From assembly GCA_009781185.1 (NCBI GenBank), contig WQYP01000005.1, positions 1 to 64,000 on the forward strand: a stretch of 64,000 nt of DNA. Direction: 5' to 3'. Numbering within the stretch: the first letter of the stretch is position 1; each line of letters starts with the position of its first letter. Position numbers and translations under genes: made by a program. This document shows positions 7,352-64,000 of the stretch, one piece after another. The notes below the pieces were generated by a model. It was not told the origin of the DNA and ran no database searches. It saw only the letters and a list, made by a program, of their open reading frames with translations. This stretch comes from Phycisphaerales bacterium (GTDB lineage: Bacteria > Planctomycetota > Phycisphaerae > WQYP01).

Positions 7352-7550
7352 ATCAGAGCAGTCATCGTAAGATTGCGGTTACGATAACGCAATCTTACGA
7401 TGGTGGGTGCGATTGCGGTGGGTGCGTGATACCTGTTGCGTTGATCTTCGATCAACGGCTAAACTGCCTCTCCCTAAAAAGCCCCGCATTGCCATGCGGG
7501 GCTCCACCCCGCAAAGCGGGGTCGCTACTTTGGTTTGCATTTCGTGTCAC
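7352..7550 (+). repeat. ~200 bp multi-hairpin composite repeat (family D, copy 1)
   Basis: 'atcagagcagtcatcgtaagattgcgg...gttgatcttcgatcaacggctaaac...agccccgcattgccatgcggggct..caccccgcaaagcggggtcgctac..tgcatttcgtgtcac'. Confidence 0.85.
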
Positions 7551-7599
7551 GCCCCCGATTGCGATGCGGCTTTATCTTGTGCACAGGGACTGATAGGAA

Positions 7600-9229: not shown

Positions 9230-9445
9230 ATCAGAGACGTCATCGTAAGAGCACGCTGTCATAATCGCAATCGGGTGCGTGATATGTTTTGCGGGCCTGC
9301 CCCTTCTTATATCGTATCCAAGGCGAGCGAGCGTTGATCTTCGATCAACGGCTAAACTCTCAATTGTCCGCCAAAGCTCCGCATTACCATGCGGGGCTCC
9401 ACCCCGCAAAGCGGGGTCGCTACTTTGGTTTGCATTTCGGGTCAC
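9230..9445 (+). repeat. Family D composite repeat (copy 2)
   Basis: Same module order and orientation as 7352-7550. Confidence 0.85.
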
Positions 9446-9564
9446 ACACCCATTGTAATCTAACGAATGCATAAGCGTAATCTAACAATTGCGGCGATGA
9501 TATTTTTCCGTATAGGATGAACCGTTCCTGATTTCGGAATTCTGTCTTTTTTATTGGAGAATGT

Positions 9565-13553: not shown

Positions 13554-13696
13554 CTCATATCGCATCCAAGGCGAACGAGCGTTGATCTTCGATCAACGGC
13601 TAAACTGCCAGCCCCGCATTGCCATGCGGGGCTCCACCCGCAAAGCGGGGGCGCTACGCGAAGCGGGGGCGCTATTTTGGTTTGCATTTCGTGTCA
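13554..13696 (+). repeat. Family D composite repeat (copy 3, lacks the 5' module)
   Basis: 'ctcatatcgcatccaaggcgaacgagcgttgatcttcgatcaacggctaaac...tgcatttcgtgtcat'. Confidence 0.8.
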
Positions 13697-13724
13697 TGCG
13701 GCTGGTGCGGGTGGGATGCAAGCG

Positions 13725-17074: not shown

Positions 17075-17190
17075 TCTAGAGCATTTTTCACTCGCCCGTA
17101 GCGTTTTGGAGCCCCGCATGGCAATGCGGGGCTTTGGCTCTCGCTTCCTGCGCATGTCATTACGCCACGACCACATGAAAAACGCTCTAG
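17075..17190. mobile_element. 116 bp MITE-like element with ~16 bp terminal inverted repeats (copy 1)
   Basis: Ends 'ctctagagcatttttcac...gtgg..catgaaaaacgctctag', with a central ccccgcatggcaatgcgggg hairpin. A near-identical inverted copy lies at 63301-63420. Confidence 0.8.
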
Positions 17191-19610: not shown

Positions 19611-21303
19611 AGCGCACCGCCTTTACCGGATCCTGGCAGGCAGCGAAGGTTGCGGGGATCAGGGCGCCGATCAGGCCAGCGAGAATGGCGACGGCGTAGT
19701 AGGCGATCAGCACGGTGGGGCTGACGTGGTCGGGGATGCGGTCGAAGAGGTAGACGGAGCGGTCCCAGATGATGATACCGGTGGTTTGGTAGATCCATTC
19801 GTGGATTTCGTTGGTGTGAGTGACGAAGGCGACGCCGCAGAGGACGCCGAGTCCGCCGCCGACGATGCCGATGAAGAGGCCGTAGTTGAGGAAGATGGTC
19901 AGGACGCCGAGTTCGGAGCCTCCGACGGCTTTGAGGATGCCGATGTCGCGGGTCTTGTCGCGGACGATCATGTAGAAGATGAGGAAGATCACGACCAAGA
20001 CGACCAGGGACATGAGTCCGAGGATGAAAATCTGCATGTACTTTTCGTTTTCGACGGCGCCGAGGTACTTTGCTTGCCGCTCGTCCCAGGTCTGGACGGT
20101 CAGCATGGGGAAGGATTCATCGAGGAGTGCCTGGATTTTGGCGCGGAGCAGGCGAGTGGCGGCGGGGTTGGCGGAGGTGGCATCGTTGAGCTTGATGAGC
20201 AGTTCATTGCAGCGTGGGGGGAAGTCGGCGGCGGGGTTTTCCTTGAGCAGTTCGGGATCGGGCCGCATGCGGGTCATGTACTGAACGGTTTCAAAAGGGG
20301 CGTAGATGTAGGTGGAATCGACGTCGTACACGCCGGAGTAAGAGTCGTCGACGACGGTGAAGGGGAGAGTGAAACCGCTCTGGACGGAGATGGCGCCGGT
20401 GTCTTTGACGGGGAAGACGGTGATCTTCAGACGAGGATTGGGGAAGTCTGGCGGTCGTTCGAAGTTGCCGCGTTTATCGCGGCGGAGGAGGCCGATCTGT
20501 ACGCCGACGATGCAGCCGGTGTCTTGTGCGGCATCGGGGGCCTGCTGGGTGGCGGCGGGCGGAATGTCGAAGGAGGGCTTGGGGGGAAGAAGAGCGGCCA
20601 AGAGATCGGCTTTGGAATGGTATTGTTTTTCGGGGAGGGAGAGGGCGAATTGCCAGGTGCGTTTGGCGCTGGCTTCGTCCTGGTAGGCACGGTTCAGGCG
20701 GTCTTCGGCAAGTTCGAACTGGCGAGGCCGGGCGGAGTTGTCGTGAAGCTTGTCGCCTTGTTCGCGGTAGAGCTTTCCGTATTGTTCGCGGAGAAGCTCG
20801 AGTTTGGCAGAGATGTTCCGATCGTTTTCGCTGGCGAAGGCGATCAGCTTGTCCCGGTCGGCGGGGAGTGCGGGGGCGAGAGCGTCGGCGGCTTCGTGCG
20901 GAGCAATGTACTGACGGAACAGCGTTTCGCGGAAACGGCTTACCTGCGAGCGTTCGGCGGGACGAATGCCGACGAGCTGGATCGGGACGGTCTGGTTGTA
21001 GGGGTAGAGGAAGTAAGCCAGTCCGTAGGCGCGGACGACGGGGGTGGAAGCTTTGATTTCGGGGAATTGCTGGGCGAGGTGTTTGGCCAGTTCGTCGTAG
21101 CCGGGCCAGCCGGTGGGATTCTGGGAGAAAATGACGATGTCGCCGAGCAGGTCGCGATTTGCCTGCCGCACACGATCGACAAAACCGCCCATGATGCTCG
21201 TGACGATGATCATCATCATCAGGCAGAGCCAGACCACCAGAATGGGGAAGATGACGATCTTCTTGCGAGTGAGATAGCGGAGAGTGAGGAAGAATTTGTA
21301 CAT
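19603..21303 (-). CDS. FtsX-like ABC transporter permease (LolC/E family) with a large periplasmic insert
   Basis: N-terminal TM helix and a C-terminal FtsX-type TM bundle ('RDIGILKAVGGS'). Overlaps the ATPase gene by 8 nt. Confidence 0.8.
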   Translation of the reverse strand: MYKFFLTLRYLTRKKIVIFPILVVWLCLMMMIIVTSIMGGFVDRVRQANRDLLGDIVIFSQNPTGWPGYDELAKHLAQQFPEIKASTPVVRAYGLAYFLYPYNQTVPIQLVGIRPAERSQVSRFRETLFRQYIAPHEAADALAPALPADRDKLIAFASENDRNISAKLELLREQYGKLYREQGDKLHDNSARPRQFELAEDRLNRAYQDEASAKRTWQFALSLPEKQYHSKADLLAALLPPKPSFDIPPAATQQAPDAAQDTGCIVGVQIGLLRRDKRGNFERPPDFPNPRLKITVFPVKDTGAISVQSGFTLPFTVVDDSYSGVYDVDSTYIYAPFETVQYMTRMRPDPELLKENPAADFPPRCNELLIKLNDATSANPAATRLLRAKIQALLDESFPMLTVQTWDERQAKYLGAVENEKYMQIFILGLMSLVVLVVIFLIFYMIVRDKTRDIGILKAVGGSELGVLTIFLNYGLFIGIVGGGLGVLCGVAFVTHTNEIHEWIYQTTGIIIWDRSVYLFDRIPDHVSPTVLIAYYAVAILAGLIGALIPATFAACQDPVKAVRYE

Positions 21304-21307
21304 AGTT

Positions 21308-21343
21308 GGAAGAAGCCAGAAGCTAGGAGCCGGAAGCTGGAAG
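21308..21343. repeat. 'gaagcca' heptamer array (single arm)
   Basis: 'ggaagaagccagaagctaggagccggaagctggaag', between the lolE-like start and the lysS stop. Confidence 0.8.
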
Positions 21344-21351
21344 TTTTTGTG

Positions 21352-23103
21352 TCATACGTCAACGATCCTGAGGGTGCCGTCCGTTTCGAGGATGAACATG
21401 GTGGGGCGAAGCCTGGTGGTGGCCTTCACCTTCGCCAAATCCGATTCCAGCTTGGTGACGTCCGCTTCCATCTGGGCTTCGCTAGGCTCGGCGGACTGAC
21501 GGTGGGCCGGGGGACTGGCGACGGGATCGTGCGGTTTGAGAAGTGGGAAGAGCACCACGTCGCGAATCGATTGGCGATTGGTCAGGAGCATGGCGAGTCG
21601 GTCGATGCCGATGCCGAGTCCTCCGGCGGGGGGCATGCCGTGGCGGAGGGCGTTGATGTAGTCGTCGTCCATGCGGGCCATGGATTCTTCGGCGGGGAGG
21701 CCGGCGAGTTGGCGTGTGAAGGTTTCTTGTTGGATGACGGGGTCGTTGAGCTCGGTGTAGGCGTTGGCGAGTTCCATGCCGGCGATGTAAAGTTCGAAGC
21801 GCTCGGCGATGTGCGGAGAGCCTGTCTTCCGTTTGGTCAGCGGACAGAGCGCCGCCGGGTAGTCGTAGAGGAAGATCGGGCGGTCGGATTTCTCGAGTTC
21901 GGGTTCGGCGAGTTGTTCGAAGAGTTCGCCGACGAGGACGTCGTGGTCTTTTTTGGCGGCGTTTTGGAGGCCGCGGTCGGTGGCGATGCGGAGCACGGCG
22001 GCTTTGTCTTGCATGTCGATGCCGACATGCTTATGGAAAAGGTCCGCGTAGCTGACGCGATCGAACGGCGGCGTGTAGTCGATGATGCGATCGCCGTATT
22101 GGAGGTGCAGGGGATGATTATCAGAGCCGCGACCGTAAGGGAGCGACTGACTTTCCTGATGTCTTGCCGCACTGTCGCTCCCTGACGGTCGCGGCTCTGA
22201 TGGGAGTTTGCCCAATGATGCGAGTCGTTCCTTGACCAGGCAAACGAGGAGGGATTCGGTGAGTTCCATCATGCCGGCGAGGTCGGAATAGGCTTGATAG
22301 CACTCGAGCATGGTGAATTCGGGGTTGTGTGTGGTGTCGATGCCTTCGTTGCGGAAGTTGCGGTTGATGTCGAAGACGCGTTCCATGCCGCCGACGAGGA
22401 GGCGCTTGAGGTAAAGCTCCGGGCTGATGCGGAGGAAGAGGTCGATGTCGAGGGCGTTGTGGTGAGTGATGAATGGGCGTGCGGCGGCGCCGCCGGCGAT
22501 GGATTGGAGGAGTGGGGTTTCGACTTCGATATACTGCCGCTGCTTGAGGAAATCGCGGACGGAGTCGATCATCTTCGAGCGGAAGAGGAAGACGTCCATG
22601 GAATCGGGGTTGGCGAAGAGATCGACGTAGCGTTGTCGGTAGCGGAGTTCGGTGTCGGAGAGGCCGTGGAATTTGTCGGGGGGGGGGAGGAGTGCTTTGG
22701 CGAGGAGTCCGAAGCCGTTGGCCCAGATGGTGATTTCTTCGGTTTTGGTGTGTCCGACTTTTCCTTCGAACCAAGCGATGTCGCCGAGCTCGAGGAGTTT
22801 AGCCTGAGGCCAGCGGTCGGGGAAGTTTTGTTTGGCCAAGCCGATCTGGATGCGGGCGGAAGAGTCTTGGATGGTCAGGAAGATGAGTTTGCCGATGTCG
22901 CGGTAGAGGACGATTCGGCCTGCGACTTTGGCGGAGTCTTGGCCGTCGTGAGGGGTGATGGCGGGGCCTTTGTGCAGGGCGCGAGCCTGGGCGGCGGAGA
23001 GGAGGCCGTCGGTACGCTGGCCGTAGGGATCGATGCCCAAGGCGGTCCACTTCTGGAGCTTGGCGAGGCGATCCTTGTATTGAGGATTGTCGGAAGTGGT
23101 CAT
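21352..23103 (-). CDS. lysS: Lysine--tRNA ligase (class II) with an internal repeat-derived insert and a C-terminal extension
   Basis: OB-fold N-terminal domain, class II motifs ('FRNEGID','ELANAYTELNDP','GLGIGIDRL'). ATG at 23103 ('MTTSDNPQYKDRLAKL'). Confidence 0.9.
   Translation of the reverse strand: MTTSDNPQYKDRLAKLQKWTALGIDPYGQRTDGLLSAAQARALHKGPAITPHDGQDSAKVAGRIVLYRDIGKLIFLTIQDSSARIQIGLAKQNFPDRWPQAKLLELGDIAWFEGKVGHTKTEEITIWANGFGLLAKALLPPPDKFHGLSDTELRYRQRYVDLFANPDSMDVFLFRSKMIDSVRDFLKQRQYIEVETPLLQSIAGGAAARPFITHHNALDIDLFLRISPELYLKRLLVGGMERVFDINRNFRNEGIDTTHNPEFTMLECYQAYSDLAGMMELTESLLVCLVKERLASLGKLPSEPRPSGSDSAARHQESQSLPYGRGSDNHPLHLQYGDRIIDYTPPFDRVSYADLFHKHVGIDMQDKAAVLRIATDRGLQNAAKKDHDVLVGELFEQLAEPELEKSDRPIFLYDYPAALCPLTKRKTGSPHIAERFELYIAGMELANAYTELNDPVIQQETFTRQLAGLPAEESMARMDDDYINALRHGMPPAGGLGIGIDRLAMLLTNRQSIRDVVLFPLLKPHDPVASPPAHRQSAEPSEAQMEADVTKLESDLAKVKATTRLRPTMFILETDGTLRIVDV
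22121..22200. repeat. Family A palindromic element (tcagagccgcgaccgtaagggagcgac ... gtcgctccctgacggtcgcggctctga), in frame in lysS
   Basis: 27 nt arms with a 26 nt loop. The arms are identical to those of the copies at 47101 and 48508. Confidence 0.95.
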
Positions 23104-23231
23104 GGCAGTCCTGTTTTGGATGAGGAACAAACGCGGAGAATCATTGTAGGGCATTCGAGCCGCAATCGTAAGATTGCGCTATTGTAACCGCAATCTGGGG
23201 GGGCATGGCACTTTAGGCGGGCTATCTGACT

Positions 23232-25750: not shown

Positions 25751-25763
25751 AAAACACCTTTTT

Positions 25764-25796
25764 AGTTTCGAGTTTCAAGTTTCGAGTTTCCAGTTT
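25764..25796. repeat. 'gtttcNa' heptamer array (single arm)
   Basis: 'agtttcgagtttcaagtttcgagtttccagttt', between rplQ and rpoA. Confidence 0.85.
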
Positions 25797-27501: not shown

Positions 27502-30500
27502 TTACCTGGTAGTTGACGTCGAGATTTTCGCGTCCGCGGACTGGATGCCGCCCAAAGTTGACGAGATTGCACGGACGATAAAGGTATATTTCGTTGAGGG
27601 TGTCAAGCCTGGGATCGTTACGGGGAGTTCGGTGTAGTTGCCGGACCAGACTTCTGTTTCCGTGTTGCCGTCGAGCCGGAATACCTGGTAGCTGGTGGTT
27701 TCCGGGAACTTGGATGCGGCCCAGGTCAACGTCACCGAATTCGCCGAACTCGTGGCTTTGACGTTCGTGACGGCAGTGTAAGTTTGCGTTTTTGCGTTGA
27801 CGTTCACGGCGGCGGCTTGCATTCCGTTGAAACCTGTCGCCACAACAAAGAACGTGTAAGACATGCCGGGATATAATCCGGGGATCGTGACCGTATTGCC
27901 GGTGACGTACTCATCAACGCCAAGTGCGATGCAGATGATCTCGTACTGGGCGTTGTTGGCGATGGTTTTCCAGGTGAGCGTGACGGTCGAGAGCGTGGAA
28001 CTGCTCTTGATGCCCTTGGCTTTCGTCGGGGCATCGCAGGTGATGTTATTGTTAGACAGAGCCGTGCAGCCGGAGAGATCCAGAGACGTCAACCATTTGT
28101 TGCCGGAACAATTAAGGGTTTGCAGAGCCGTGCAGGCGGAAACGTTTAGGGACTTCAATTGGTTATTGGAGCAATTGAGAGTTTGCAGAGCCGTGCAGGC
28201 GGAAACGTTTAGGGACTTCAATTTATTGTTAGAGCAATTGAGGTTTTGCAGAGCCGTGTAGCCGGAGACGTTCAGGGATGTCAATCTGTTGCCGGAGCAA
28301 GTGAGAGTCTGCAGAGTCGTGCTGGCGGAGACATTCAAAGACTTCAATTTGTTGCCGGAGCAAGTGAGGTTTTGCAGAGCCGTGCAGGCGGAGGCGTTCA
28401 GGGACGATAATTTATTGTTGGAGCAAGTGAGGATTTGCAGAGCCGCGCAGGCGGAAAGGTTCAGGGACGATAATTTGTTGTTGGAGCAATTGAGGTTTTG
28501 CAGAGCCGTGCCGCGGGAGATATTCAGGGACTTCAATTGGTTGCTGTTGCAGGAGAGCAGTAGCAGAGCCGTGCAGGTGGAGGCGTTGAGGGACTTCAAT
28601 CGGTTGCTGGAGCAAGTGAGGATTTGTAGAGCCGTGCATTTGGAGATGTTCAGGGATGTCAATCGGTTGTTGTTGCAAACGAGTTGTTGGAGAGCCGTGC
28701 AGCCGGAGGCATTGAGGGACTTCAATCTGCTGTTGTAGGAGCAACTGAGGATTTGCAGAGCCGTGCGGCCGGAGACGTTCAGGGATTTCAAATAGCTGTT
28801 GTGAGAGCAATTGAGCGCTGTCAATGCCGTGCAATTGGAGACGTTCAGGGATTTCAACAGGTTGTAGCTGCAATCGAGAGATTCCAGAGCTGTGCAGCGG
28901 GAGACGTTCAGGGACTTCAAGGGGTTGTTGTAGCAAGCGAGCGATTGCAGAGCCGTGCAGCGGGAGACGTTCAGGGACTTTAATTGGTCGTTGGAGCAAT
29001 CGAGTTCTTGGAGGGCCGTGCATCCGGAGACGTTCAAGGAGGTGAATTGGCTGTTGTTGCCGCAATCGAGTTCCTGGAGAGCCGTGCAGCCGGAGACGTT
29101 CAGGGATGTCAATTGGTTGTTGTTGTCGCAATTGAGAGATATCAGAGCCGTGCAGCCGGCCAAATTAAGTGAACCACTGAGAGGCCTGGTAAACGGGCCG
29201 CTTGAACTGCTGTTAGTTGCATCGATGCTTTTGATTTTCAGTTCGTCGTTGACTACTGTCCATATGACCATATCCTCTGTGAGTCCGTTTTTGGCGATGG
29301 CGGTGGTGTATTTCGCCCAGTCGTAGGCGTTGTAGGGTGCTACCCCTGTCGTCGCACTGACGGTGTCCGAATACGGCGAGTCGCTGTAGTCGCCCGTTCC
29401 GATCGCCATGACGCAGACGTCATAGGTCGTTCCCACCTTCAAGTCGTCAAAATCAAAAGTGAGCGTTGTGCCGTCCGTCACCGTTTTCGTTTTTGTGCCC
29501 ACTTGAATCACGTAGCCGGAAGCGCCGGGCACGGCATCCCAGCTGACGGTCAGTGTGACGGCGTCCTTGGCGGTTGCCGTAACGCCTGTTGGAGCGGCGA
29601 GCGTCGATGCCAGGATCGTGACCTCTGTTGTTTGCAGCGTCAATTCCGGAAACGTCGCATTGGTCATCGTGCAGTAGATGACGTCATCCGTATGGAGACC
29701 GTCGAATACGAATTGGCCGTTGGTTTCCGTGTAATTGTCTGGGGAAACCGTCGTCCCGTCGGCGTAATACCATGTGTACGTAGTCGGCACTCCGCCGATC
29801 ATGGACTCTGTGGAAAGGTCTAACATCGCATCGCGAGCAAGCGATGATACGATGGAAATATCGCTTTGCGGGCTGTAAGTGTTGCTGGTCAGAGGCAGCG
29901 TTGAAAAAGTCAATTGGTTGTTGGAGCAGTCGAGAGTTTGCAGAGCTGTGAAGCCGGAGAGGTTCAGGGACGTTAATTGGTTGGTGGAGCAGTTGAGCGA
30001 TTGCAGGGCCGTGCAGTCGGAGAGGTCTAGGGATGTCAATTGGTTGGTGGAGCAATCGAGAGTTTGCAGGGCCGTGCAGTCGGAGAGGTTCAGGGACGCC
30101 AAGCTGTTGAAGCTGCAATCGAGAGAAGAGAGCTCCGTGCAACCGGACAAGTCGAGGGTACCGTTGAGACCGGCGTCGCTGGCGATGACCTGGGTGAGTC
30201 GCATTTCGCTATTGATTTGCGTCCATGTGACCATGTCCGCAGTGAGTCCGTTGTTGTCAACGGCGGTGGAGTATTTCGCCCAGTCATCGGCGTTATAGCC
30301 ATCAGGGGCAGGGTCAGCGGCGACGTCGGCGGCAGTGGCGGCGGGAACGACTGCAGCCTGATCCTGAGGAGCGATGAGCGCAACGGAGGTTGCGTGATTG
30401 TCGGGAACCGCAAGTTTTGGCAATAACGGACTGGCCGAGAGCATTGTCCGGTTATCGAGAGATTCCAAAATATGCCGGGAATTGTGGGTGGGTCTGGTTT

Positions 30501-30537
30501 TGCCGGTTTTCTGGAACATGCTCATTCTCCAACTCAT
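27502..30537 (-). CDS. Large leucine-rich-repeat / fibronectin-III surface protein
   Basis: 1011 aa. About 20 LRR units of 22-23 aa ('LKSLNVSACTALQTLNCSNNQ') in two blocks. Three FN3-like modules ('VTLTVSWDAVPGASGY','VTLTWKTIANNAQYEI','VTLTWAASKFPETTSYQVF'). Confidence 0.85.
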   Translation of the reverse strand: MSWRMSMFQKTGKTRPTHNSRHILESLDNRTMLSASPLLPKLAVPDNHATSVALIAPQDQAAVVPAATAADVAADPAPDGYNADDWAKYSTAVDNNGLTADMVTWTQINSEMRLTQVIASDAGLNGTLDLSGCTELSSLDCSFNSLASLNLSDCTALQTLDCSTNQLTSLDLSDCTALQSLNCSTNQLTSLNLSGFTALQTLDCSNNQLTFSTLPLTSNTYSPQSDISIVSSLARDAMLDLSTESMIGGVPTTYTWYYADGTTVSPDNYTETNGQFVFDGLHTDDVIYCTMTNATFPELTLQTTEVTILASTLAAPTGVTATAKDAVTLTVSWDAVPGASGYVIQVGTKTKTVTDGTTLTFDFDDLKVGTTYDVCVMAIGTGDYSDSPYSDTVSATTGVAPYNAYDWAKYTTAIAKNGLTEDMVIWTVVNDELKIKSIDATNSSSSGPFTRPLSGSLNLAGCTALISLNCDNNNQLTSLNVSGCTALQELDCGNNSQFTSLNVSGCTALQELDCSNDQLKSLNVSRCTALQSLACYNNPLKSLNVSRCTALESLDCSYNLLKSLNVSNCTALTALNCSHNSYLKSLNVSGRTALQILSCSYNSRLKSLNASGCTALQQLVCNNNRLTSLNISKCTALQILTCSSNRLKSLNASTCTALLLLSCNSNQLKSLNISRGTALQNLNCSNNKLSSLNLSACAALQILTCSNNKLSSLNASACTALQNLTCSGNKLKSLNVSASTTLQTLTCSGNRLTSLNVSGYTALQNLNCSNNKLKSLNVSACTALQTLNCSNNQLKSLNVSACTALQTLNCSGNKWLTSLDLSGCTALSNNNITCDAPTKAKGIKSSSTLSTVTLTWKTIANNAQYEIICIALGVDEYVTGNTVTIPGLYPGMSYTFFVVATGFNGMQAAAVNVNAKTQTYTAVTNVKATSSANSVTLTWAASKFPETTSYQVFRLDGNTETEVWSGNYTELPVTIPGLTPSTKYTFIVRAISSTLGGIQSADAKISTSTTR
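28054..29175 (-). repeat. Tandem ~69 bp coding repeats (LRR block 2, ~16 units)
   Basis: Recurrent 'ttgcagagccgtgcaggcgga..cgttcagggacttcaa' periodicity. Confidence 0.9.
29902..30165 (-). repeat. Tandem ~69 bp coding repeats (LRR block 1, ~4 units)
   Basis: Same unit type as block 2. Confidence 0.85.
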
Positions 30538-30610: not shown

Positions 30611-30685
30611 AAACGCTCCCTGACGGTCGCGCCTCGGATTGCCCCTTACATTTGACCATCCGAGACGCGACTGTAAGGGAGCATT
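30611..30685. repeat. Family A-related hairpin with the arm order swapped
   Basis: 'aaacgctccctgacggtcgcgcctcgg' ... 'ccgagacgcgactgtaagggagc'. Followed by 'gagcttacgctcgcggctctga' (30700-30722). Confidence 0.7.
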
Positions 30686-30734
30686 TTTAGCTCACGGGAC
30701 GAGCTTACGCTCGCGGCTCTGATGGCGGACGGCG

Positions 30735-31194: not shown

Positions 31195-31280
31195 AAGAAG
31201 CCAGTAGCCAGAAGCCAGAAGCCAGAAGAATCAATGGAAGCCGTAGCTTCTGGCTACTGGCTTCTGGCTTCTGGCTTCTT
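31195..31280. repeat. Heptamer-arm palindrome (gaagcca type)
   Basis: 'aagaagccagtagccagaagccagaagccagaag' (31195-31228) versus 'cttctggctactggcttctggcttctggcttctt' (31247-31280). The right end touches the rpmJ stop codon. Confidence 0.9.
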
Positions 31281-32576: not shown

Positions 32577-32665
32577 CGAAGCCAGAAGCTAGAAGCCAGA
32601 AGCCAGAAGTGAGAAACTGCCGAGACCAAAACCTTCTGGCTACTGGCTTCTGGCTTCTGGCTTCG
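32577..32665. repeat. Heptamer-arm palindrome (gaagcca type)
   Basis: 'cgaagccagaagctagaagccagaagccagaag' versus 'cttctggctactggcttctggcttctggcttcg'. Confidence 0.9.
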
Positions 32666-32678
32666 AGGTTGGCAAGTC

Positions 32679-34244: not shown

Positions 34245-34258
34245 AAGAACCTCACGAT

Positions 34259-34417
34259 GAAGAAGCCAGAAGCCAGAAGTTAGAAGCTAGAAGGCTCCAG
34301 CTTTGTGGCTTATTCGAGATCCCCAACTTCCGATTCCCAACTTCCAACTTCCGACGACGAACTTCGAACTTCGAGCTTTAGGCTTTAAGCTTCTGGCTTC
34401 TGGCTTCTGGCTTCTTC
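34259..34417. repeat. Large heptamer-arm palindrome whose right arm runs into the rplO 3' end
   Basis: 'gaagaagccagaagccagaagttagaagctagaagg' (34259-34294) versus 'ctttaggctttaagcttctggcttctggcttctggcttcttc' (34376-34417). The loop carries 'ccaacttcc' and 'gaacttcga' units. Confidence 0.85.
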
Positions 34418-34929: not shown

Positions 34930-34964
34930 AATGAGCTACTCCTGGAAAAAGCCGGGAACCATCA

Positions 34965-35000
34965 CCTTCTGGCTTCTGGCTTCTGGCTTCTGGCTTCTTC
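34965..35000. repeat. 'tggcttc' heptamer array (single arm)
   Basis: 'ccttctggcttctggcttctggcttctggcttcttc', between rplO and rpsE. Confidence 0.85.
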
Positions 35001-36992: not shown

Positions 36993-37262
36993 TCAGAAGC
37001 TGCTCTTACGCATACCCGGAATCAGGCCTGCGTGGGCCAGTTCCCGGACCATAATGCGGCTGATTTTGAACTTTCGGTAATGGCCGCGACGCCGACCGGT
37101 CAGCTCGCAACGCCGGGTCAGACGCGTGGGGGAAGAGTTCCGCGGCAACTTTGCTAACGCCGCATAGTTCTTTTCTTCCTTGAGCTTTTTGCGAATCTCG
37201 GCGTACTTTTGAACCAGCTCCAGCCGTTTCTTGTACCGATTTTTCCATGCTGTTGTTGCCAT
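36993..37262 (-). CDS. rpsN: 30S ribosomal protein S14 (long, non-zinc type)
   Basis: '[50 protein letters not shown]'. Confidence 0.9.
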
Positions 37263-37265
37263 TTG

Positions 37266-37298
<33 letters not shown>

Positions 37299-37300
37299 TT

Positions 37301-38131
37301 TTATTTACGTGTTTTTTCTTCTTCTGTACGGAAGGGCATGCCGAGGTGTTTCAGCAAGGCGAAACCTGCGGCGTTGTCTGCTGCCGAGGTAACGATTGTG
37401 ATGTTCATGCCTTGGTGGAATACCACCGCGGCGGAGTCGACTTCTGAGAAGACGGTTTGTTCGGTGATGCCCATGTTGTAGTTGCCGCGGCCGTCGAAGC
37501 CCTTGGGATTCAAACCGCGGAAGTCTTTGACACGCGGAATTGCCAGCGTGATGAGGCGATCCAGGAATTCCCACATGCGGCCGCCACGGAGTGTTACTTT
37601 TGCGCCGATTTCCATGCCTTCGCGGAGTTTGAAATTTGAGACGCTTTTCTTGGCTTTGCAGATAACGGCTTTCTGGCCGGCGATGGCGGTCAGTTCTTTG
37701 ATTGCCGCTTCCAGACGCGGCCGTTCCGCGATTGCTTTGCCCAGGCCCATCGAGACGACCACCTTCTCTACTTTCGGCAGCGCCATTTTGTTCTTGATTT
37801 TCAAATCGGTCATCAGTTTCGGAGCGATCTGTTCTTCAAAACGTTTTTTCAAACGCGGCATGTAGCCCTGCGGAAAGGCGAGAACTTCGCCGCCTTCTTC
37901 TTTCTTTTTGCCGCCACCTCCCCCACCGCCGCCTTTGGCTTTGCCTTTGTCGGCTTTTTCAGTTTTGCCGCCTTTTCCTTCGGGCGCTGCGCCTGCGGCT
38001 TCGCCGCCGGCTTCTTTCGCCTTCGCCGCCATTTCCGCTTTCTTGGCGGCCTTGGCAGCTTTTTCGGCTTCGATCTGCTCGGGTGTCTTGGCCGGCTTAT
38101 CCTGTTTCTTTTCTTCTTTTTCTTTCGACAT
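37301..38131 (-). CDS. rplE: 50S ribosomal protein L5 with a ~95 aa Lys/Ala/Gly/Glu-rich N-terminal extension
   Basis: Core '[16 protein letters not shown]...VVVSMGLG...[19 protein letters not shown]'. ATG at 38131 ('[12 protein letters not shown]'). Confidence 0.9.
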
Positions 38132-38530: not shown

Positions 38531-38540
38531 AGTTATTCCT

Positions 38541-38574
38541 GAGTTTCGAGTTTCCAATTTCGAGTTTCGAGTTT
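38541..38574. repeat. 'gtttcNa' heptamer array (single arm)
   Basis: 'gagtttcgagtttccaatttcgagtttcgagttt', between rplX and rplN. Confidence 0.85.
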
Positions 38575-45086: not shown

Positions 45087-45156
45087 CAAAAAAAGGCAGG
45101 TAAGGCTGAGGGAGTGTGCCACTGGCGGGGCGAGCTTACGCTCGCGGCTCTGTTTT

Positions 45157-46685: not shown

Positions 46686-47100
46686 CAGGTCGGGTAATGT
46701 GGCGGAACAGGCTTGACAAAGCCCCCCGCGATTGATCGCGGAGGGAGCGGAACGCGGAGAAAATATTCCAACTTCGTTTCATGGCTGAGTTTATGTCAAT
46801 CTTGCCAGAAAGTGTCCGTGCGTAACCGCGCACACGGCAATACGCTGTATGTTCGATATACCACAAGTTTCCAAAAAAACAAGGACTTTTTTATGTTTTT
46901 TGGAAGGGGAGGCGTGACATGGTTTGTACACCCAAGTCGCGTTCGTACGGGTCGCGACGCCGCAAGCGGTTGCGGGGATCTTCCACACAAGTCATGTCGG
47001 TTTTTGCTCCGCCAGCCAAAGCTCCGCATTGCCATGCGGGGCTCTGTCACCCCGCAAAGCGGGGTCTACGTGCTCTGTCTCAACCCTCCGCAAGCGATGA

Positions 47101-47181
47101 TCAGAGCCGCGACCGTAAGGGAGCGACAGGCGGTATTTTCGCATGGTCACACGGGTCGCTCCCTGACGGTCGCGGCTCTGA
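47101..47181. repeat. Family A palindromic element (intergenic)
   Basis: Same 81 bp sequence as 48508-48588, including the loop 'aggcggtattttcgcatggtcacacgg', by eye. Confidence 0.95.
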
Positions 47182-48507: not shown

Positions 48508-48588
48508 TCAGAGCCGCGACCGTAAGGGAGCGACAGGCGGTATTTTCGCATGGTCACACGGGTCGCTCCCTGACGGTCGCGGCTCTGA
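48508..48588. repeat. Family A palindromic element (intergenic)
   Basis: Direct duplicate of 47101-47181. The adjoining 48589-48635 segment ('ttatccggggcaatcgtctgattggccataaaaaatggccacaccc') recurs inverted at 63881-63922. Confidence 0.95.
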
Positions 48589-48677: not shown

Positions 48678-49706
48678 ATGCATATTCCGGATGGACTTTT
48701 GGATGTGAAGACGGCGGTGGCGATGGGGGTGCTCTCGGCGACAGGGCTGGGGGTGGCGTTGCGGCATGTGCGATTGCATCTGCCGGCGAAACGGGTGCCG
48801 CTGCTGGGACTGTCGGCGGCGTTTGTGTTTGCGGCACAGATGCTGAATTTTCCGGTGTTGCCGGGGGTGAGCGGGCATTTGATCGGAGGGATGCTGACGG
48901 CGGCGCTGCTGGGGCCCAGTGCGGCGGTGGTGGTGATATCGGCGGTGCTGATTGTGCAGTGTTTTTTGCTTGCTGATGGAGGGGTTCTGGCGCTGGGGGC
49001 GAATATTTTTAACATGGCGCTGGTGGGGAGTGCGGGCGGATGGGTGGTGTATTATTTGGTGAGTCGGGCGGTGAAGGGGTTGTTCGGGCGTGTGCTGGCG
49101 GCGACGTTCGCGTCGTGGGTGGCGGTGGTGGTGGCGGCGGTGGCGTGTGCGGGGGCGCTGGCGACGTCGGGGACGGCGAGTTGGTCAGTGTTGCTACCGA
49201 TGATGACGGGGGTGCACATGCTCATCGGCGTGGGTGAGGGGGTGATCACGGCGATGGTGCTGACGTTTATCGCCAAGACGCGGCCGGAGATGTGGGGCGA
49301 TGCGGCGGCGGCGAAGAGAAGCCAGAAGCCAGAAGCCAGAAGCCAAGAGATGGGGGGCGGGCAAACGGTGAATCCAACAGGAACGGAGCGGTGGGGGGCG
49401 GTGATTGTGTTGGGGTTGCTGATTTGTGTGGGGTTGGCGTTGTTCGTGGGGCCGTTTGCGTGCGGGTGGGATGATGGATTGGAGGTGACGGTTCAACAGA
49501 AGGGCGTGCATGTGTCTGAGGCGGCGGAGCATCTGATCAAGGTGCCGATGCCGGACTACAAGATGCCGGGGCTGGGAGACGGCAGAGTGGCGACGGGGGT
49601 GGCGGGAGCGGTGGGGACGGTGGTGGTCTTTGGACTGGCGTGGGTGCTGGCGCGGTCGCTGGTGAGGAAGATGAAACCGGCGGTAGATGTGGGGGGGAGT
49701 GAGTGA
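48678..49706 (+). CDS. cbiM: ECF cobalt/nickel transporter substrate component CbiM fused to a PDGLE-type C-terminal domain
   Basis: 'MHIPDGLLD' start and CbiM TM helices. C-terminal 'ACGWDDGLEVT' between two TM helices. Confidence 0.8.
   Translation: MHIPDGLLDVKTAVAMGVLSATGLGVALRHVRLHLPAKRVPLLGLSAAFVFAAQMLNFPVLPGVSGHLIGGMLTAALLGPSAAVVVISAVLIVQCFLLADGGVLALGANIFNMALVGSAGGWVVYYLVSRAVKGLFGRVLAATFASWVAVVVAAVACAGALATSGTASWSVLLPMMTGVHMLIGVGEGVITAMVLTFIAKTRPEMWGDAAAAKRSQKPEARSQEMGGGQTVNPTGTERWGAVIVLGLLICVGLALFVGPFACGWDDGLEVTVQQKGVHVSEAAEHLIKVPMPDYKMPGLGDGRVATGVAGAVGTVVVFGLAWVLARSLVRKMKPAVDVGGSE
49314..49349. repeat. 'gaagcca' heptamer array inside cbiM
   Basis: 'aagagaagccagaagccagaagccagaagccaagag', translated as 'KRSQKPEARSQE'. 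Confidence 0.9.
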
Positions 49707-49707
49707 G

Positions 49708-50457
49708 ATGCGGGCGGAATATCTGGATCGATACAGCCGATTGAGCAGTCCGGTGCATCGGCTTTGGACGGGTGTGAAATTGTTGGCGGCGGTGGCGGTG
49801 GTGGTGGTGGTGGTGTCGATGCCGCGGAATTTTTGGGGTGGGTGGGCGGGATTGGCGGCGGTGGCGGGGTTTCTGGTAGTGGTGGCGGCGATGAGCGGGA
49901 TTCCGTGGGGGTTTTTGCTGCGGCGGATGCTGTGGCTGGAGCCGCTAGCGATTGGCGTGGCGTTATTGAGCTTGTTGCAGGTGGGTGGGTGGCAGGTGTT
50001 TTTGTGGCTGATGGCGCGGAGCAGTTTGTGTCTGCTGACGATGCTGCTTTTGTCGAACACGGCGCCGTATTCGGAGCTTTTGCGGGTGATGCGTCGGGTG
50101 AAGGTGCCGACGATGCTGGTGACGACATTGGCGTTGATGTATCGGTATTTGTTTGTGATGATGGATGAGGCGGGGCGGATAAAGCGGGCGCGGATGAGTC
50201 GGACGTTTTCGGAGAGGGGGGGGGGGAAATCACGCCGTTGGCGGACGGCGGCGACGGTGGTGAGCCAGTTGTTCATCCGAGTGAGCGAACGATCGGAGCG
50301 GATATTCGCGGCAATGTGTGCGCGGGGATGGGGAGACGGTCTGAGCCGCGACCGTAAGGGAGCGACCCGTTCTAGCGCTCTGTTATCGCACGGTCGCTCC
50401 CTTACGGTCGCGGCTCAGATCGTCAAAGACAATAGCTCTGGGAACGAGGGAAGATAA
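49708..50457 (+). CDS. cbiQ: ECF transporter transmembrane (T) component CbiQ
   Basis: 'MRAEYLDRYSRLSSPVHRL' from the ATG at 49708, 2 nt after the cbiM stop. '..AMCARGW' lies near the native C-terminus. The stop TAA overlaps the cbiO ATG. Confidence 0.8.
   Translation: MRAEYLDRYSRLSSPVHRLWTGVKLLAAVAVVVVVVSMPRNFWGGWAGLAAVAGFLVVVAAMSGIPWGFLLRRMLWLEPLAIGVALLSLLQVGGWQVFLWLMARSSLCLLTMLLLSNTAPYSELLRVMRRVKVPTMLVTTLALMYRYLFVMMDEAGRIKRARMSRTFSERGGGKSRRWRTAATVVSQLFIRVSERSERIFAAMCARGWGDGLSRDRKGATRSSALLSHGRSLTVAAQIVKDNSSGNEGR
50340..50419. repeat. Family A palindromic element forming the 3' end of cbiQ
   Basis: 'tctgagccgcgaccgtaagggagcgac...gtcgctcccttacggtcgcggctcaga'. The stem position is A-T paired here. 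Confidence 0.9.
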
Positions 50458-51211: not shown

Positions 51212-51427
51212 TTTGGTACCGCGACCGTAGGGAGCGTGGGGGAAAGTTCGAAACTCGAAATTCAAATCAAATTCCAAATTCAAAGTTCGAAGCTCGAAAC
51301 AGCCTGGGGGCGAATGGATGGTGTAGGCGGTGTTTCGAACTTTGAACATTCGAATTTGGAATTTGTTTCGAATTTCGAATTTCGAGTTTCGAATTTCTAA
51401 ACGCTCCCTTACGGTCGCGGTACCAAA
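51212..51427. repeat. Composite nested palindrome: family A-type arms enclosing a 'ttcgaa'-unit palindrome
   Basis: 'tttggtaccgcgaccgtagggagcg' (51212-51236) and 'cgctcccttacggtcgcggtaccaaa' (51402-51427) flank an inverted homolog of 5957-6110. Confidence 0.85.
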
Positions 51428-52242
51428 TGCTCATGACAGAGGCCGAGTTTGGCAGCGTAGGTGGCGAGATCAGGCGGAAGCGGGGTGCGGAAATGAACCC
51501 ATTGATGGGTGGCAGGATGCTTGAAGCCCAGGTGCGCAGCGTGCAGACACAGACGCGGAGGAGGAGGGTAATTCTGATTTTCGATTTTCGATTTTCGATT
51601 TTCGATTTCTGAATGTGGCACGGAGTAAATGTCGTCGCCGAGGACTTGGCAGTGGATGAAGGTCATGTGGGCGCGGATCTGGTGGAGGCGACCGGTTTTG
51701 ATCGCGACGTTCACGAGGGCGGCGGGAGGTTTGTTTTCAGGCGTTTGCGAGAGGACTTTGTAGGCGGAGATGGCTTCCTGGCCTTGGCGGGAGATGACGA
51801 CTTTTTTGATGCTGGCACCTTCTCGTTTGGCGTCGGGGTTGGGGACTTCGATTTCTTTGAGGCGGGCTTGGATGACGCCTTGTTTCGGGTGCGGGATGCC
51901 GGCGGTGAGGGCGAAATATTCCTTGTCGACGCGGCGGGCTTCGAAGTCGCGGCGGAGTTGGTCGTAGGCGTTAGGGGTTTTGGCGATCACGAGAAGGCCG
52001 GAGGTTTCTTTATCGAGCCGATGGAGCAGACCGAAGTCGCGACGTTGGCCGAGGTTGTGAAGCAGCTTGGCGATAAGGCCGTCGTGAAGGGCGAAGACAC
52101 CGTTGAGAAGCGAGTCGAAGGCGTGGCCTTTGCCGGGCTGAGTGACGGTACCGGCCGGCTTGTTGATGATGAGCAGATCGTTGTCTTCATGCAGGACGGG
52201 AACGAGAACAGCAGGATTGGGTTTGATGGCGAAGTCAGGCAT
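51409..52242 (-). CDS. RluA-family pseudouridine synthase
   Basis: 'LHRLDKETSGLLVIAKT', 'GRLHQIRAHM'. ATG at 52242 ('MPDFAIKPNP'). Confidence 0.85.
   Translation of the reverse strand: MPDFAIKPNPAVLVPVLHEDNDLLIINKPAGTVTQPGKGHAFDSLLNGVFALHDGLIAKLLHNLGQRRDFGLLHRLDKETSGLLVIAKTPNAYDQLRRDFEARRVDKEYFALTAGIPHPKQGVIQARLKEIEVPNPDAKREGASIKKVVISRQGQEAISAYKVLSQTPENKPPAALVNVAIKTGRLHQIRAHMTFIHCQVLGDDIYSVPHSEIENRKSKIENQNYPPPPRLCLHAAHLGFKHPATHQWVHFRTPLPPDLATYAAKLGLCHEHLVPRP
51576..51610. repeat. (gattttc)x5 tandem heptamer inside the RluA-family CDS
   Basis: 'gattttcgattttcgattttcgattttcgatttct', translated on the minus strand as 'SEIENRKSKIENQ'. Confidence 0.9.
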
Positions 52243-52278
52243 TGCACACTTCGGACGCAAGTTGGAGACGAGAAAACA

Positions 52279-52338
52279 TCAGAGCCGCAATCGTAAGATT
52301 GCGGAGCGATAACCGCAATCTCACGATTGCGGCTCTGA
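52279..52338. repeat. Family A variant with 'ccgcaatcgtaagattgcgg' arms
   Basis: 'tcagagccgcaatcgtaagattgcgg agcgataa ccgcaatctcacgattgcggctctga'. Related units at 7361-7400, 23157-23200, 60975-61000 and 63250-63283. Confidence 0.85.
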
Positions 52339-52366: not shown

Positions 52367-53461
52367 TTAGTTGCCATCGGAGTGGCCCCAGCGGAAATGG
52401 CGGGCTTCGAGCTGGGTGATGAGTTGATCGGTGGTGGGAGAGGTAGCGAGGAGGTCGGCGAGGATTTTTTCGGCGGCTTGGTAGTCGGCGAGACCGGTGT
52501 CGTCGCCGGTGTGGTAGATAAGCGTGTCGGTTTGGGCGAGGCGGGCGGCGAGGAGTTGGAGGATGGTCATGAGTTGGCGGTCGCCGCCGTAGACGCCGCA
52601 GCCCCAAAAGCCGGTGTGGATGGTGATTTTTGGGAGAGCATCAGAGCCGCGACCGTCAGGGAGCGACCCCTGAGTTACCGCTTCACGGTCGCTCCCTGAC
52701 GATTGCGGCTCTGATGATTGTATTTTTGCGGCGGTGAAGGCGGTGGTGGCAGTAGTGAGGATGTAGCGAATTTGGTTGGCGGTGTAGAAGCCTTTGCCGT
52801 TAGCGGGGGCCTCGATGGCGATGATGTTGGAGAAGGTGGGTGGGTCGATGGTGGTGATCGCGCAGCGGACGACGTCGGCGGAGGCTTGGGCAAAGGCATT
52901 GCCGTAAAGGCCGCGGAGCTTGATGCGACGCTGGACGTTTTGAATGAGGATCGGTGTGGGCTCGCCGGACTCGACGGTAAGGGTGGAAAGGCGATCGTGC
53001 AGGAGGGCTTCGCGGAGGTGGGCGAGGATGGGATGCTCGGCGACCTGCAGTTCATCCTGGGCGAGCAGAGGGGAGGCATAAAACAAAAAGAGATCGCTGT
53101 GGGCAAAGTTGAGGTGCCACTCGATGATGTTTTTATTTTTATTTTTATTTTTCGGTGTGTCATAGGTGAAGAAATCGGGACGGGCTTCGGCGGCAGGAAT
53201 TTTGGCGGGGAGCGTTTGCGGGAGAGGCTGGGCGGGCCAGCGGGAATAGGTGAGAGTGCCGGCGTGGGCAGAGTTTTTCGGGCAGGCGAGGGCGTAGGTG
53301 AGTTGCTTGTTGGAATCTTGGAAAGTGAGGGGGAAGTCTTTGGCGAGTGTGGCGGCGTCGTAGGATTTGGTGGCGAGCGGTTTCATGACCGGCTCCGTAG
53401 TCGCAGCGGTAAACATCGCTGCGAAAAGAACAATCGCTAGAAGTTTGCAAATAACAGTCAT
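52367..53461 (-). CDS. Poly(ADP-ribose) glycohydrolase (PARG)-like protein with an N-terminal signal peptide
   Basis: 'HTGFWGCGVYGGDRQLMTILQLLAA' versus eukaryotic PARG 'TGNWGCGAFGGD..LK.L.Q.LAA' (recalled from memory). 'LNFAHSD...LLAQDELQVAEHP' versus 'DFANK.LGGG...VQEEIRF..NPE'. Signal peptide 'MTVICKLLAIVLFAAMFTAA'. Confidence 0.6.
   Translation of the reverse strand: MTVICKLLAIVLFAAMFTAATTEPVMKPLATKSYDAATLAKDFPLTFQDSNKQLTYALACPKNSAHAGTLTYSRWPAQPLPQTLPAKIPAAEARPDFFTYDTPKNKNKNKNIIEWHLNFAHSDLFLFYASPLLAQDELQVAEHPILAHLREALLHDRLSTLTVESGEPTPILIQNVQRRIKLRGLYGNAFAQASADVVRCAITTIDPPTFSNIIAIEAPANGKGFYTANQIRYILTTATTAFTAAKIQSSEPQSSGSDREAVTQGSLPDGRGSDALPKITIHTGFWGCGVYGGDRQLMTILQLLAARLAQTDTLIYHTGDDTGLADYQAAEKILADLLATSPTTDQLITQLEARHFRWGHSDGN
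52641..52714. repeat. Family A palindromic element, in frame in the PARG-like gene
   Basis: 'tcagagccgcgaccgtcagggagcgac...gtcgctccctgacgattgcggctctga'. The stem position is C-G paired here. Confidence 0.9.
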
Positions 53462-57846: not shown

Positions 57847-58135
57847 CGTGAACAGGAACGCCGGGGGTGACAAGCGGTTTCGGTGGCCTTTGGCGAAATC
57901 AACGCAAAGCCCCGCATTACCATGCGGGGCTCCTCCTGACGCCTGTGCTACATGTGCCACAAAAGATGGCCACACCCAGAACGCCAAATGTAATTGCCCG
58001 TGGTTTGACACTCTTCTGTCATTACCTATACTGGTTCCCTCGACATTTTCGCCGTGAAATTCGGCTCTTTGATACCCCGCCCGCAGGTTCTTAATCAAAA
58101 TATCCTGACGCGGCCTATTTCGGAGGAATTGTATC

Positions 58136-63300: not shown

Positions 63301-63420
63301 CTATTAGAGCATTTTTCATGTGGTCGTGGCGTAATGACATGCGCAGGAAGCGAGAGCCAAAGCCCCGCATTGCCATGCGGGGCTCCAAAACGCTACGGGC
63401 GAGTGAAAAATGTTCTAATG
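63301..63420. mobile_element. 116 bp MITE-like element (copy 2, inverted relative to 17075-17190)
   Basis: 'ctattagagcatttttcatgtggtcgtggcgtaatgacatgcgcaggaagcgagagccaaagccccgcattgccatgcggggct...gtgaaaaatgttctaatg'. Confidence 0.8.
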
Positions 63421-63922: not shown

Positions 63923-64000
63923 TCAGAGCCGCGACCGTCAGGGAGCGACAGGCGTTATTTCCGCATTGTCGCACGGATCGCTCCCTGACGGTCGCGGCTC
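63923..64000. repeat. Family A palindromic element (cut by the window end)
   Basis: 'tcagagccgcgaccgtcagggagcgac...atcgctccctgacggtcgcggctc'. Together with 63881-63922 it forms an inverted copy of 48508-48635. Confidence 0.85.

Follow-up and report, generated by a model that had tools for sequence, protein, structure and literature searches.

How does a long palindrome come to lie in frame inside a gene of a normally essential class, and what kind of element is it? The question is raised by lysS, which encodes a class II lysyl-tRNA synthetase (LysRS), in a 64-kb stretch of DNA from a Phycisphaerales bacterium (GCA_009781185.1, contig WQYP01000005.1, 1-64,000 of the forward strand; hereafter, the window). 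The window is a single metagenome-type contig, and its host group is the Phycisphaerae (Planctomycetota), a lineage that we call free-living. We conclude that the lysS palindrome is very probably a doublet of repetitive extragenic palindromic (REP) units of the class 3 type, which landed in a permissive loop of the gene and survived there as a passenger.

The palindrome spans 22121-22200 on the forward strand and consists of a 27-nt arm (TCAGAGCCGCGACCGTAAGGGAGCGAC), a 26-nt spacer and a second 27-nt arm (GTCGCTCCCTGACGGTCGCGGCTCTGA), 80 nt in total; it extends by one further base on each side, to 22120-22201 (A...T). An 80-bp element with 27-nt arms within lysS is what a first-pass annotation of this DNA had described, and both arms fit the arm pattern it gave with no mismatches. 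It had also judged, by eye, that the arms are those of two intergenic copies; indeed, they are identical to the arms at 47101/47155 and 48508/48562, including an A/C asymmetry at arm position 17. A search of the window with the same pattern returned 11 matches, compared to 0.00 expected from 100 shuffles. The reading frame stays open throughout the insert, which is flanked by ...ERLASLGKLP and NHPLHLQYGD... (NHPLHLQYGDRIIDYTPPFDRV) and encodes the peptide SEPRPSGSD…SLPYGRGSD, as had been annotated with the sole omission of the tripeptide NHP. The C in the loop of the right arm avoids the CCG-TAA stop that an arm of the GTAA variant would give in the lysS frame. The insert peptide is strongly hydrophilic (grand average of hydropathy, GRAVY, −1.60, compared to −0.34 for the whole LysRS), and the element is predicted to fold as RNA into a 27-bp stem with one mismatch (−59.3 kcal/mol, z = −8.0).

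Apart from this insert, the gene looks unremarkable. Its product matches the Pfam family tRNA-synt_2 (E = 1.4e-87) and has an OB (oligonucleotide/oligosaccharide-binding) anticodon-binding domain (PF00152 and PF01336 match), and its best match in the PDB is the Geobacillus LysRS 3a74 (E = 1e-124). The alignment to that structure falls into two blocks, with query residues 23-311 on chain residues 6-296 and query residues 350-540 on chain residues 300-491, and the ~35 extra residues of the query are located exactly at the palindrome. For loop lengths and invariant columns we compared 114 LysRS homologs, and for the peptide, residue by residue, the 23 closest aligned homologs. Every column that is invariant in the 114 homologs is kept in the window LysRS, including those of motif 2 (FRNEG) and motif 3 (GLGIGIDR). 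The OB domain, the class II core and both of these catalytic motifs are all present, and the open reading frame 21352..23154 appears, by its sequence, to be an otherwise intact class II LysRS. The database LysRS P0001 is the contig's own protein, and exactly this protein is found on one contig only. The protein also carries a C-terminal extension (~540-583 of P0001; 21352-21500) that is conserved in the clade (EAQMEKDV.KLE.DLAKVKA...MF.LE.DGSLR.FDV), is modeled as one helix and a beta hairpin, and is absent from PDB LysRS structures.

The site of the insert is a loop of widely varying length. The segment from the end of the KERL helix to the LHLQYG strand ranges from 2 to 76 residues among the 114 homologs (median 12); it has 37 residues in the window LysRS and would have 10 if the insert were removed. 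A peptide of the SEPRPSGSD type is absent from all 23 closest aligned homologs. The closest ortholog (P0002, 85% identity, from a Phycisphaerales metagenome-assembled genome, MAG) reads ERLTSLEKPAVCDGGAAVLHLQYGD at this site, where its DNA (L001) is free of any palindrome. The first-pass annotation had placed the insert in a variable portion of the class II catalytic domain and had suggested looking for a gap in the orthologs and for a surface loop. Its placement agrees with these comparisons and with an AlphaFold2 model (mean predicted local distance difference test score, pLDDT, 81.5), in which residues 297-332 form a low-confidence coil (pLDDT 48-63) between a helix (275-296) and a strand (333-336). 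Lineage-specific insertions of class IIb synthetases are located between motifs 2 and 3; the insertion domain of bacterial AspRS is an example. The long loops of two other homologs at this site (P0008 and P0026) contain no palindrome, and recurrent insertion at this position is not supported. Two further homologs (P0030 and P0031) have a 55-residue PVGT-rich loop at the matching site, as well as additional low-complexity inserts in the OB domain (GGQDARGT / GGRDARGTREGAGG...). Because the lysS arms match the arms of intergenic copies exactly and the closest ortholog is without the insert, these comparisons point to a recent insertion into lysS.

We scanned one genome per species for exact matches to a 24-nt core (GAGCCGCGACCGTMAGGGAGCGAC). 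Among the matches listed are genomes of Phycisphaerales, Pirellulales, Gemmatales, Planctomycetaceae, Acidobacteriaceae, Solibacter, Bryobacterales, Sumerlaeota and others, and in these matches the core is found singly, in inverted pairs that converge across spacers of 8-101 nt, and occasionally in divergent pairs. At least 33 convergent pairs lie in other genomes, and at the loci in other genomes neither the flanks outside the core nor the spacers are conserved. No direct repeats flank the copies in the window or the 38 listed pairs; all that is seen is the palindrome's own one-base A...T extension. This arrangement is the behavior of REP sequences, not that of MITEs (miniature transposable elements with inverted repeats).

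The same units accompany a transposase gene in related genomes. A Phycisphaerae MAG (L031, JABWBH010000002) encodes a protein with a Y1_Tnp domain (PF01797, 30.9 bits) and the motifs NHVH and YVALHQ, which falls below the equivalog cut-offs of both IS200 and REP-associated tyrosine transposases (RAYTs; 32.6 bits versus 80 for the NCBIfam RAYT model). A metagenome scan with this protein as the query returned 80 loci, which contain 147 core-like units (≤5 mismatches), compared to 0 in shuffled loci. In 30 of the 80 loci, a plus-strand unit lies upstream and a minus-strand unit downstream of the transposase gene, within 160 nt, which is the arrangement of a REPtron. The 146 distinct units at these loci share a scaffold of GCC-stem-GTNA-stem, preceded by a CnGA foot in which G is present in all 146 units, C in 104 and A in 130; the arms in the window read tCAGA-GCC.... 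Covariation supports a hairpin within each arm, with 60 doubly changed cells compared to 14.4 ± 2.6 in shuffles (none of the 500 was as high). At pair 13-20 of this hairpin, 95 sequences have CG and 41 have GC, and two central positions are always non-Watson-Crick. We therefore read the lysS element as a putative doublet of the kind called a REPIN (REP doublet forming a hairpin), in which two inverted REP units of ~26 nt each carry a CnGA foot followed by GCCGCGACC-GTNA-GGGAGCGR.

This family matches the class 3 TnpA(Y1) of Quentin et al. 2018 (BMC Genomics 19:475, PMC6006769). As the class 3 section of that paper describes them, these transposases have the motifs NHVH and Y----Q and flanking structures with a CnGA foot; their hosts are Planctomycetes, Acidobacteria and Proteobacteria, with ~600 repeat copies in Solibacter usitatus. 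The units described here resemble those class 3 REPtrons in the CnGA foot, the hairpin unit, the position beside a Y1 gene with NHVH and Y----Q motifs, the occurrence in Planctomycetes and Acidobacteria, and a probably high copy number. They differ in that the window itself has no transposase, and that section of the paper, which treats transposase flanks and dispersed repeats, makes no mention of in-frame genic copies.

Searches for other descriptions of the element were negative. No Rfam family scored high enough in the window to pass its gathering cut-off, and near the lysS element there were only far-sub-threshold matches to microRNA hairpins; a sequence-based literature search found no paper with the core sequence and one unrelated, primer-like match. 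Three other kinds of element were rejected by eye: a CRISPR (clustered regularly interspaced short palindromic repeats) repeat, since neither a regular array nor an internal repeat stem of the CRISPR type is seen; an integron attC site, since there are no GTTRRRY/RYYYAAC cores; and an intrinsic terminator, since there is no T-run and the element sits within a gene.

By analogy with IS200/IS605 elements, including IS608, and with the RAYT of Escherichia coli, the lysS copy was presumably moved as single-stranded DNA by a class 3 Y1 transposase, without target duplication. It would have survived because the surface loop that it entered, between motifs 2 and 3, takes 2-76 residues, because its net length is 81 nt (a multiple of three), and because, read in this frame and orientation, it is free of stop codons. 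The insert would then be transcribed and translated as a hydrophilic, probably disordered loop of 27 residues, and the 27-bp stem (−59 kcal/mol) might, in the mRNA, slow ribosomes or attract RNase III. Most likely the insert is carried as a passenger, at no cost or a slight one, and does not serve as a functional module; that it is nearly neutral we infer.

That some copies can be translated does not make the family adapted to coding. Of the 6 frames of a REP unit, an average of 4.68 are open, compared to 5.32 ± 0.06 in composition-matched shuffles; in the lysS copy itself, 3 are. We rejected the notion of an element constructed to avoid stops, since frames that contain stops are more numerous in REP units than in shuffles. 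Because stop codons are not depleted, a selection filter, through which only the few insertions pass that enter a permissive loop, add 3n bases and are free of stops, explains the coding copies better than adaptation to coding does.

The lysS copy is one of several in the window (Table 1). Seventeen units of the REP scaffold, in three stem subfamilies, lie within the 64 kb, compared to 0.02 in shuffles, and 3 of the 7 doublets are predicted to be translated, in addition to a half unit at the end of a gene. The sister subfamilies share the foot and the GTNA loop and have fully Watson-Crick stems (GCAATC/GATTGC and GCGAGC/GCTCGY); they are found at 23157-23177, 52282-52335, 7370-7406, 30699-30719 and 45130-45150.

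The doublet in the PARG-like gene provides an older case of in-frame insertion. An ortholog with 76% identity (P0122), recovered identically from two independent assemblies, has SEPRPSGSDGAAANLSPPDGRGSD at the site that matches the insertion in the window, while homologs at ≤58% identity have a clean 20-residue gap. Because this ortholog has the insertion at the same site, the insertion predates the split of two species-level lineages and has been kept in frame since. At the DNA level (L080:2209-2273 compared to the window), the arms are conserved and the spacer has diverged, with a 3-nt indel, and the residues encoded by the spacer are not conserved between the two orthologs. A G-to-A change in the 5′ arm has its counterpart in the 3′ arm, where C has changed to T; as covariation this was set aside as weak and suggestive only, since both changes are synonymous. 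One arm of the PARG copy in the window is hybrid: one of its sides is GCAATC, which is a sister subfamily's stem, and the opposite side is GGGAGC. In the case of cbiQ, the best CbiQ homologs (50%-level representatives) have 201-206 aa, and their ends align with query residue 215.

Table 1. Positions of lysS, of the parts of its insert and of the other REP units and doublets in the window.
Feature	Position	Strand	Remarks
lysS, class II lysyl-tRNA synthetase	21352..23103	-	583 aa from the P0001 start; open frame back to 23154
In-frame insert of lysS, 27 codons, 81 nt	22120..22200	-	SEPRPSGSDSAARHQESQSLPYGRGSD; residues 302-328 of P0001
LysRS peptide stretches for spanning the insert			KLPSEPRPSGSD, GRGSDNHPLHLQYGDR
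Left REP arm	22121..22147	+	Foot CAGA, then hairpin GCCGCGACC-GTAA-GGGAGCGAC
Spacer, 26 nt	22148..22173		CGCAC-like motif beside the right arm; otherwise unlike the spacers of other copies
Right REP arm, GTCA-loop variant	22174..22200	-	Read first in the lysS sense strand
Sister-subfamily REP unit	23157..23177	+	Foot TCGA, stem GCAATC-GTAA-GATTGC; just upstream of lysS; more at 52282, 52315
Three REP units, intergenic cluster	30612..30719		Includes an inside-out (divergent) pair and one unit with GCGAGC/GCTCGT stem
Intergenic doublet, arms identical to lysS copy	47101..47181	+	52 nt downstream of a MoxR-like AAA gene
Intergenic doublet, arms identical to lysS copy	48508..48588	+	~90 nt upstream of cbiM
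Doublet in 41-residue C-terminal extension of cbiQ (49687..50457)	50340..50419	+	Encodes LSRDRKGAT...GRSLTVAAQ; new stop overlaps the cbiO start
Half element, single REP	51402..51424	-	Provides the final codons (VPRP) and the TAA stop for a pseudouridine synthase gene of the RluA family (51409..52260, -)
In-frame doublet in PARG-like gene (PF05028; 52367..53461, -)	52641..52714	-	Encodes SEPQSSGSDREAVTQGSLPDGRGSD; arm frames as in the lysS copy
Copy cut by the window end	63923..64000	+	Arm pattern match

Other explanations of the lysS insert have to be weighed against a REP doublet carried as a passenger. Two inverted 27-nt arms in an element of ~80 bp with many dispersed copies would also describe a classical MITE, that is, an insertion sequence of the DDE type reduced by deletion, which has 27-bp terminal inverted repeats and moves by cut-and-paste with target-site duplication. 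We consider this highly improbable: no copy is flanked by direct repeats, the arms also occur singly and in divergent pairs and, where paired, are separated by 8-101 nt, covariation supports a hairpin within each of the arms, and the only gene found framed by the units encodes a Y1 HUH transposase, not a DDE enzyme. The REPtron data already speak against a MITE. It is similarly improbable, if less so, that the insert is a misassembly across the repeat, or that this lysS is decaying while another LysRS is in use. Repeats can cause assembly chimeras, the contig is of metagenome type with the exact protein on one contig only, and a second LysRS could lie beyond the 64 kb; but the frame stays open for all 583 codons, the two flanks form one continuous LysRS alignment with PDB structures, and every column invariant in the 114 homologs is kept. 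Moreover, at 80 nt the repeat falls short of the length of a sequencing read pair, and the analogous PARG insertion is identical in two independent assemblies. Co-option of the insert, either as an mRNA hairpin that regulates lysS through translation pausing or RNase III cleavage or as a peptide loop with a role in LysRS, would fit the very stable predicted RNA stem (−59 kcal/mol, z −8) and the PARG arms, which are still complementary over ~19% nucleotide divergence with one matched G-to-A/C-to-T change. Nevertheless, among the homologs compared the lysS insert is in this genome only, no Rfam family matches it, the PARG residues encoded by the spacer are unconserved between the two orthologs, the matched PARG changes are both synonymous and could be due to chance or to conversion within the element, and REP units show no depletion of stop codons (4.68 compared to 5.32 open frames of 6); we thus regard co-option as improbable.

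Several observations also count against the interpretation that we favor, a class 3-type REP doublet that survived as a passenger. A tblastn search with the L031 Y1 protein found no Y1 transposase in the 64-kb window, and the link to a transposase therefore rests on related genomes. According to the class 3 section of PMC6006769, no experiment has demonstrated that class 3 REPs transpose, and class 3 is without biochemical data. We found no empty-site allele of this lysS, and the loop in P0002/L001 is too diverged to set the insertion boundaries, so that neither the exact inserted unit nor the lack of a target duplication in lysS can be fixed. The spacers are wholly different while the arms are identical, for which copy-and-paste of whole doublets is not an obvious explanation. 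Furthermore, translation of the insert is something that we infer, and a second lysS or a class I LysRS may be present elsewhere in the genome.

Synthetase genes of related genomes carry the REP units and, in alaS, the transposase as well. In L031 (3692-7801), a 1369-codon open reading frame of alaS, which encodes alanyl-tRNA synthetase (AlaRS), contains three in-frame doublets, and the Y1_Tnp domain (PF01797) is in frame between two of them. We surveyed the best 120 clusters matching the L031 AlaRS: ~30 of these carry PF01797 inside AlaRS, in proteins of 1147-1541 aa from Phycisphaerae and Planctomycetota, which include P0241, P0245-P0250 and P0252-P0268. There are two insertion sites, one after GAPAYTGxL and the other before ISGEDAFKLHDTYGFP, with two proteins that carry the transposase at both, and the transposase inserts are flanked by peptides encoded by REPs. 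The AlaRS of isolate RAS2, among others, has no transposase insert. In the L031 alaS DNA, the C-terminal end is out of frame after a run of half elements; the database protein P0241 keeps the DHHA1 domain. In-frame doublets were also found in a leuS fragment (L073), which encodes part of a leucyl-tRNA synthetase (LeuRS), and in a PMT_2 glycosyltransferase gene (L044). A literature search found no paper linking AlaRS and RAYT. It is conceivable, although we hold it to be doubtful, that the class 3 REP/Y1 system is resident in the coding sequences of Phycisphaerae, that essential synthetase genes serve it as both safe harbor and expression host, and that protein loops are remodeled as a result. 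If the system were resident in this way, the lysS insert might, tentatively, be viewed as one product of a lineage-wide process that acts in LysRS, LeuRS, AlaRS, the PARG-like enzyme and CbiQ.

In-frame REPs, including those in tRNA synthetases, are already on record, and the lysS copy adds a case from a described REP family. Di Nocera et al. 2013 (BMC Genomics 14:522, PMC3733652) reported that REP dimers inside open reading frames encode 20-30 residues, also in tRNA synthetases, and that REPs supply stop codons to adjacent open reading frames; the lysS insert is thus a known type of phenomenon. Like the GTAG/CGTC REPs of that survey, the units described here form in-frame dimers in tRNA synthetase genes and supply stop codons. 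They differ in the foot, which is CnGA here but GTAG or CGTC there, as well as in stem and loop. The taxa differ as well, since the cases in PMC3733652 are mostly from Proteobacteria, Opitutus terrae and Rickettsia, and 3 of 7 doublets in the window are predicted to be translated, whereas the REPs of that survey are mostly intergenic. The REPIN-RAYT system (Bertels & Rainey 2011, PLoS Genet, PMC3116915) is similar in that two inverted REPs with a short spacer form a long hairpin and the Y1 enzyme is flanked by REPs. In contrast to that system, the L031 transposase scores 32.6 against the 80-bit RAYT cut-off, spacers are unconserved among copies, the tag is different, and no single-copy RAYT has turned up in this genome, of which 64 kb were analyzed.

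The first-pass annotation had likened the lysS palindrome to the Rickettsia palindromic elements (RPEs), and the comparison holds in part: this too is a dispersed selfish palindrome tolerated in frame, but it is unrelated to RPEs and appears instead to be a REP doublet of the class 3 Y1-linked family. RPEs, reportedly described by Ogata et al. in 2000, are selfish palindromes of ~100-150 bp, found in frame in housekeeping proteins of Rickettsia at surface-compatible positions, with orthologs that are without the insert; we know of no transposase identified for them. The likeness lies in the in-frame insertion into conserved proteins with orthologs that lack the insert (lysS and the PARG-like gene), and the difference in that this 80-bp element, in Phycisphaerae, belongs to a Y1-linked REP family and shows no sign of a sequence relationship.

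Other repeats are also present in the window. Two dispersed hairpin families, AGCCCCGCATTGCCATGCGGGGCTC (8 copies) and CCACCCCGCAAAGCGGGGTCGCTAC (7 copies), often adjoin one another and may be terminators or REP-like; their sites include 7474-7556, 9369-9451, 13604-13703, 17104-17139, 47014-47044, 57902-57932 and 63355-63385. Tandem 7-nt repeats (AGAAGCC/GGCTTCT and TTCGAGT types), often as inverted blocks, occur in intergenic gaps (21297-21344, 25753-25796, 31196-31280, 32577-32666, 34247-34417, 34955-35000, 37262-37305, 38531-38574, 49303-49350 and 51248-51396), and many of these blocks lie in what appears, from the translations of its open reading frames, to be a ribosomal-protein gene cluster. 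Finally, ~20 tandem copies of a 63-nt (21-codon) repeat occupy 28057-30215 in an open reading frame of 1011 residues (27502..30537, minus strand).

For annotation, the family explains the peptides SEPRPSGS, RAATVRER, SRDRQGA, PLPDGRGS and RSLTVAA, which recur both in real proteins and in spurious open reading frames of Planctomycetota and Acidobacteriota. For the study of mobile elements, a 26-nt hairpin with a CnGA foot is tied to a defined clade of transposases by covariation and by gene context. The lysS insert indicates that in-frame selfish palindromes are not limited to reduced, intracellular genomes such as those of Rickettsia: a free-living lineage of Planctomycetota has such palindromes in the gene of an aminoacyl-tRNA synthetase, which belongs to a class that is normally essential, as well as in other conserved genes, and one of them has persisted across species.

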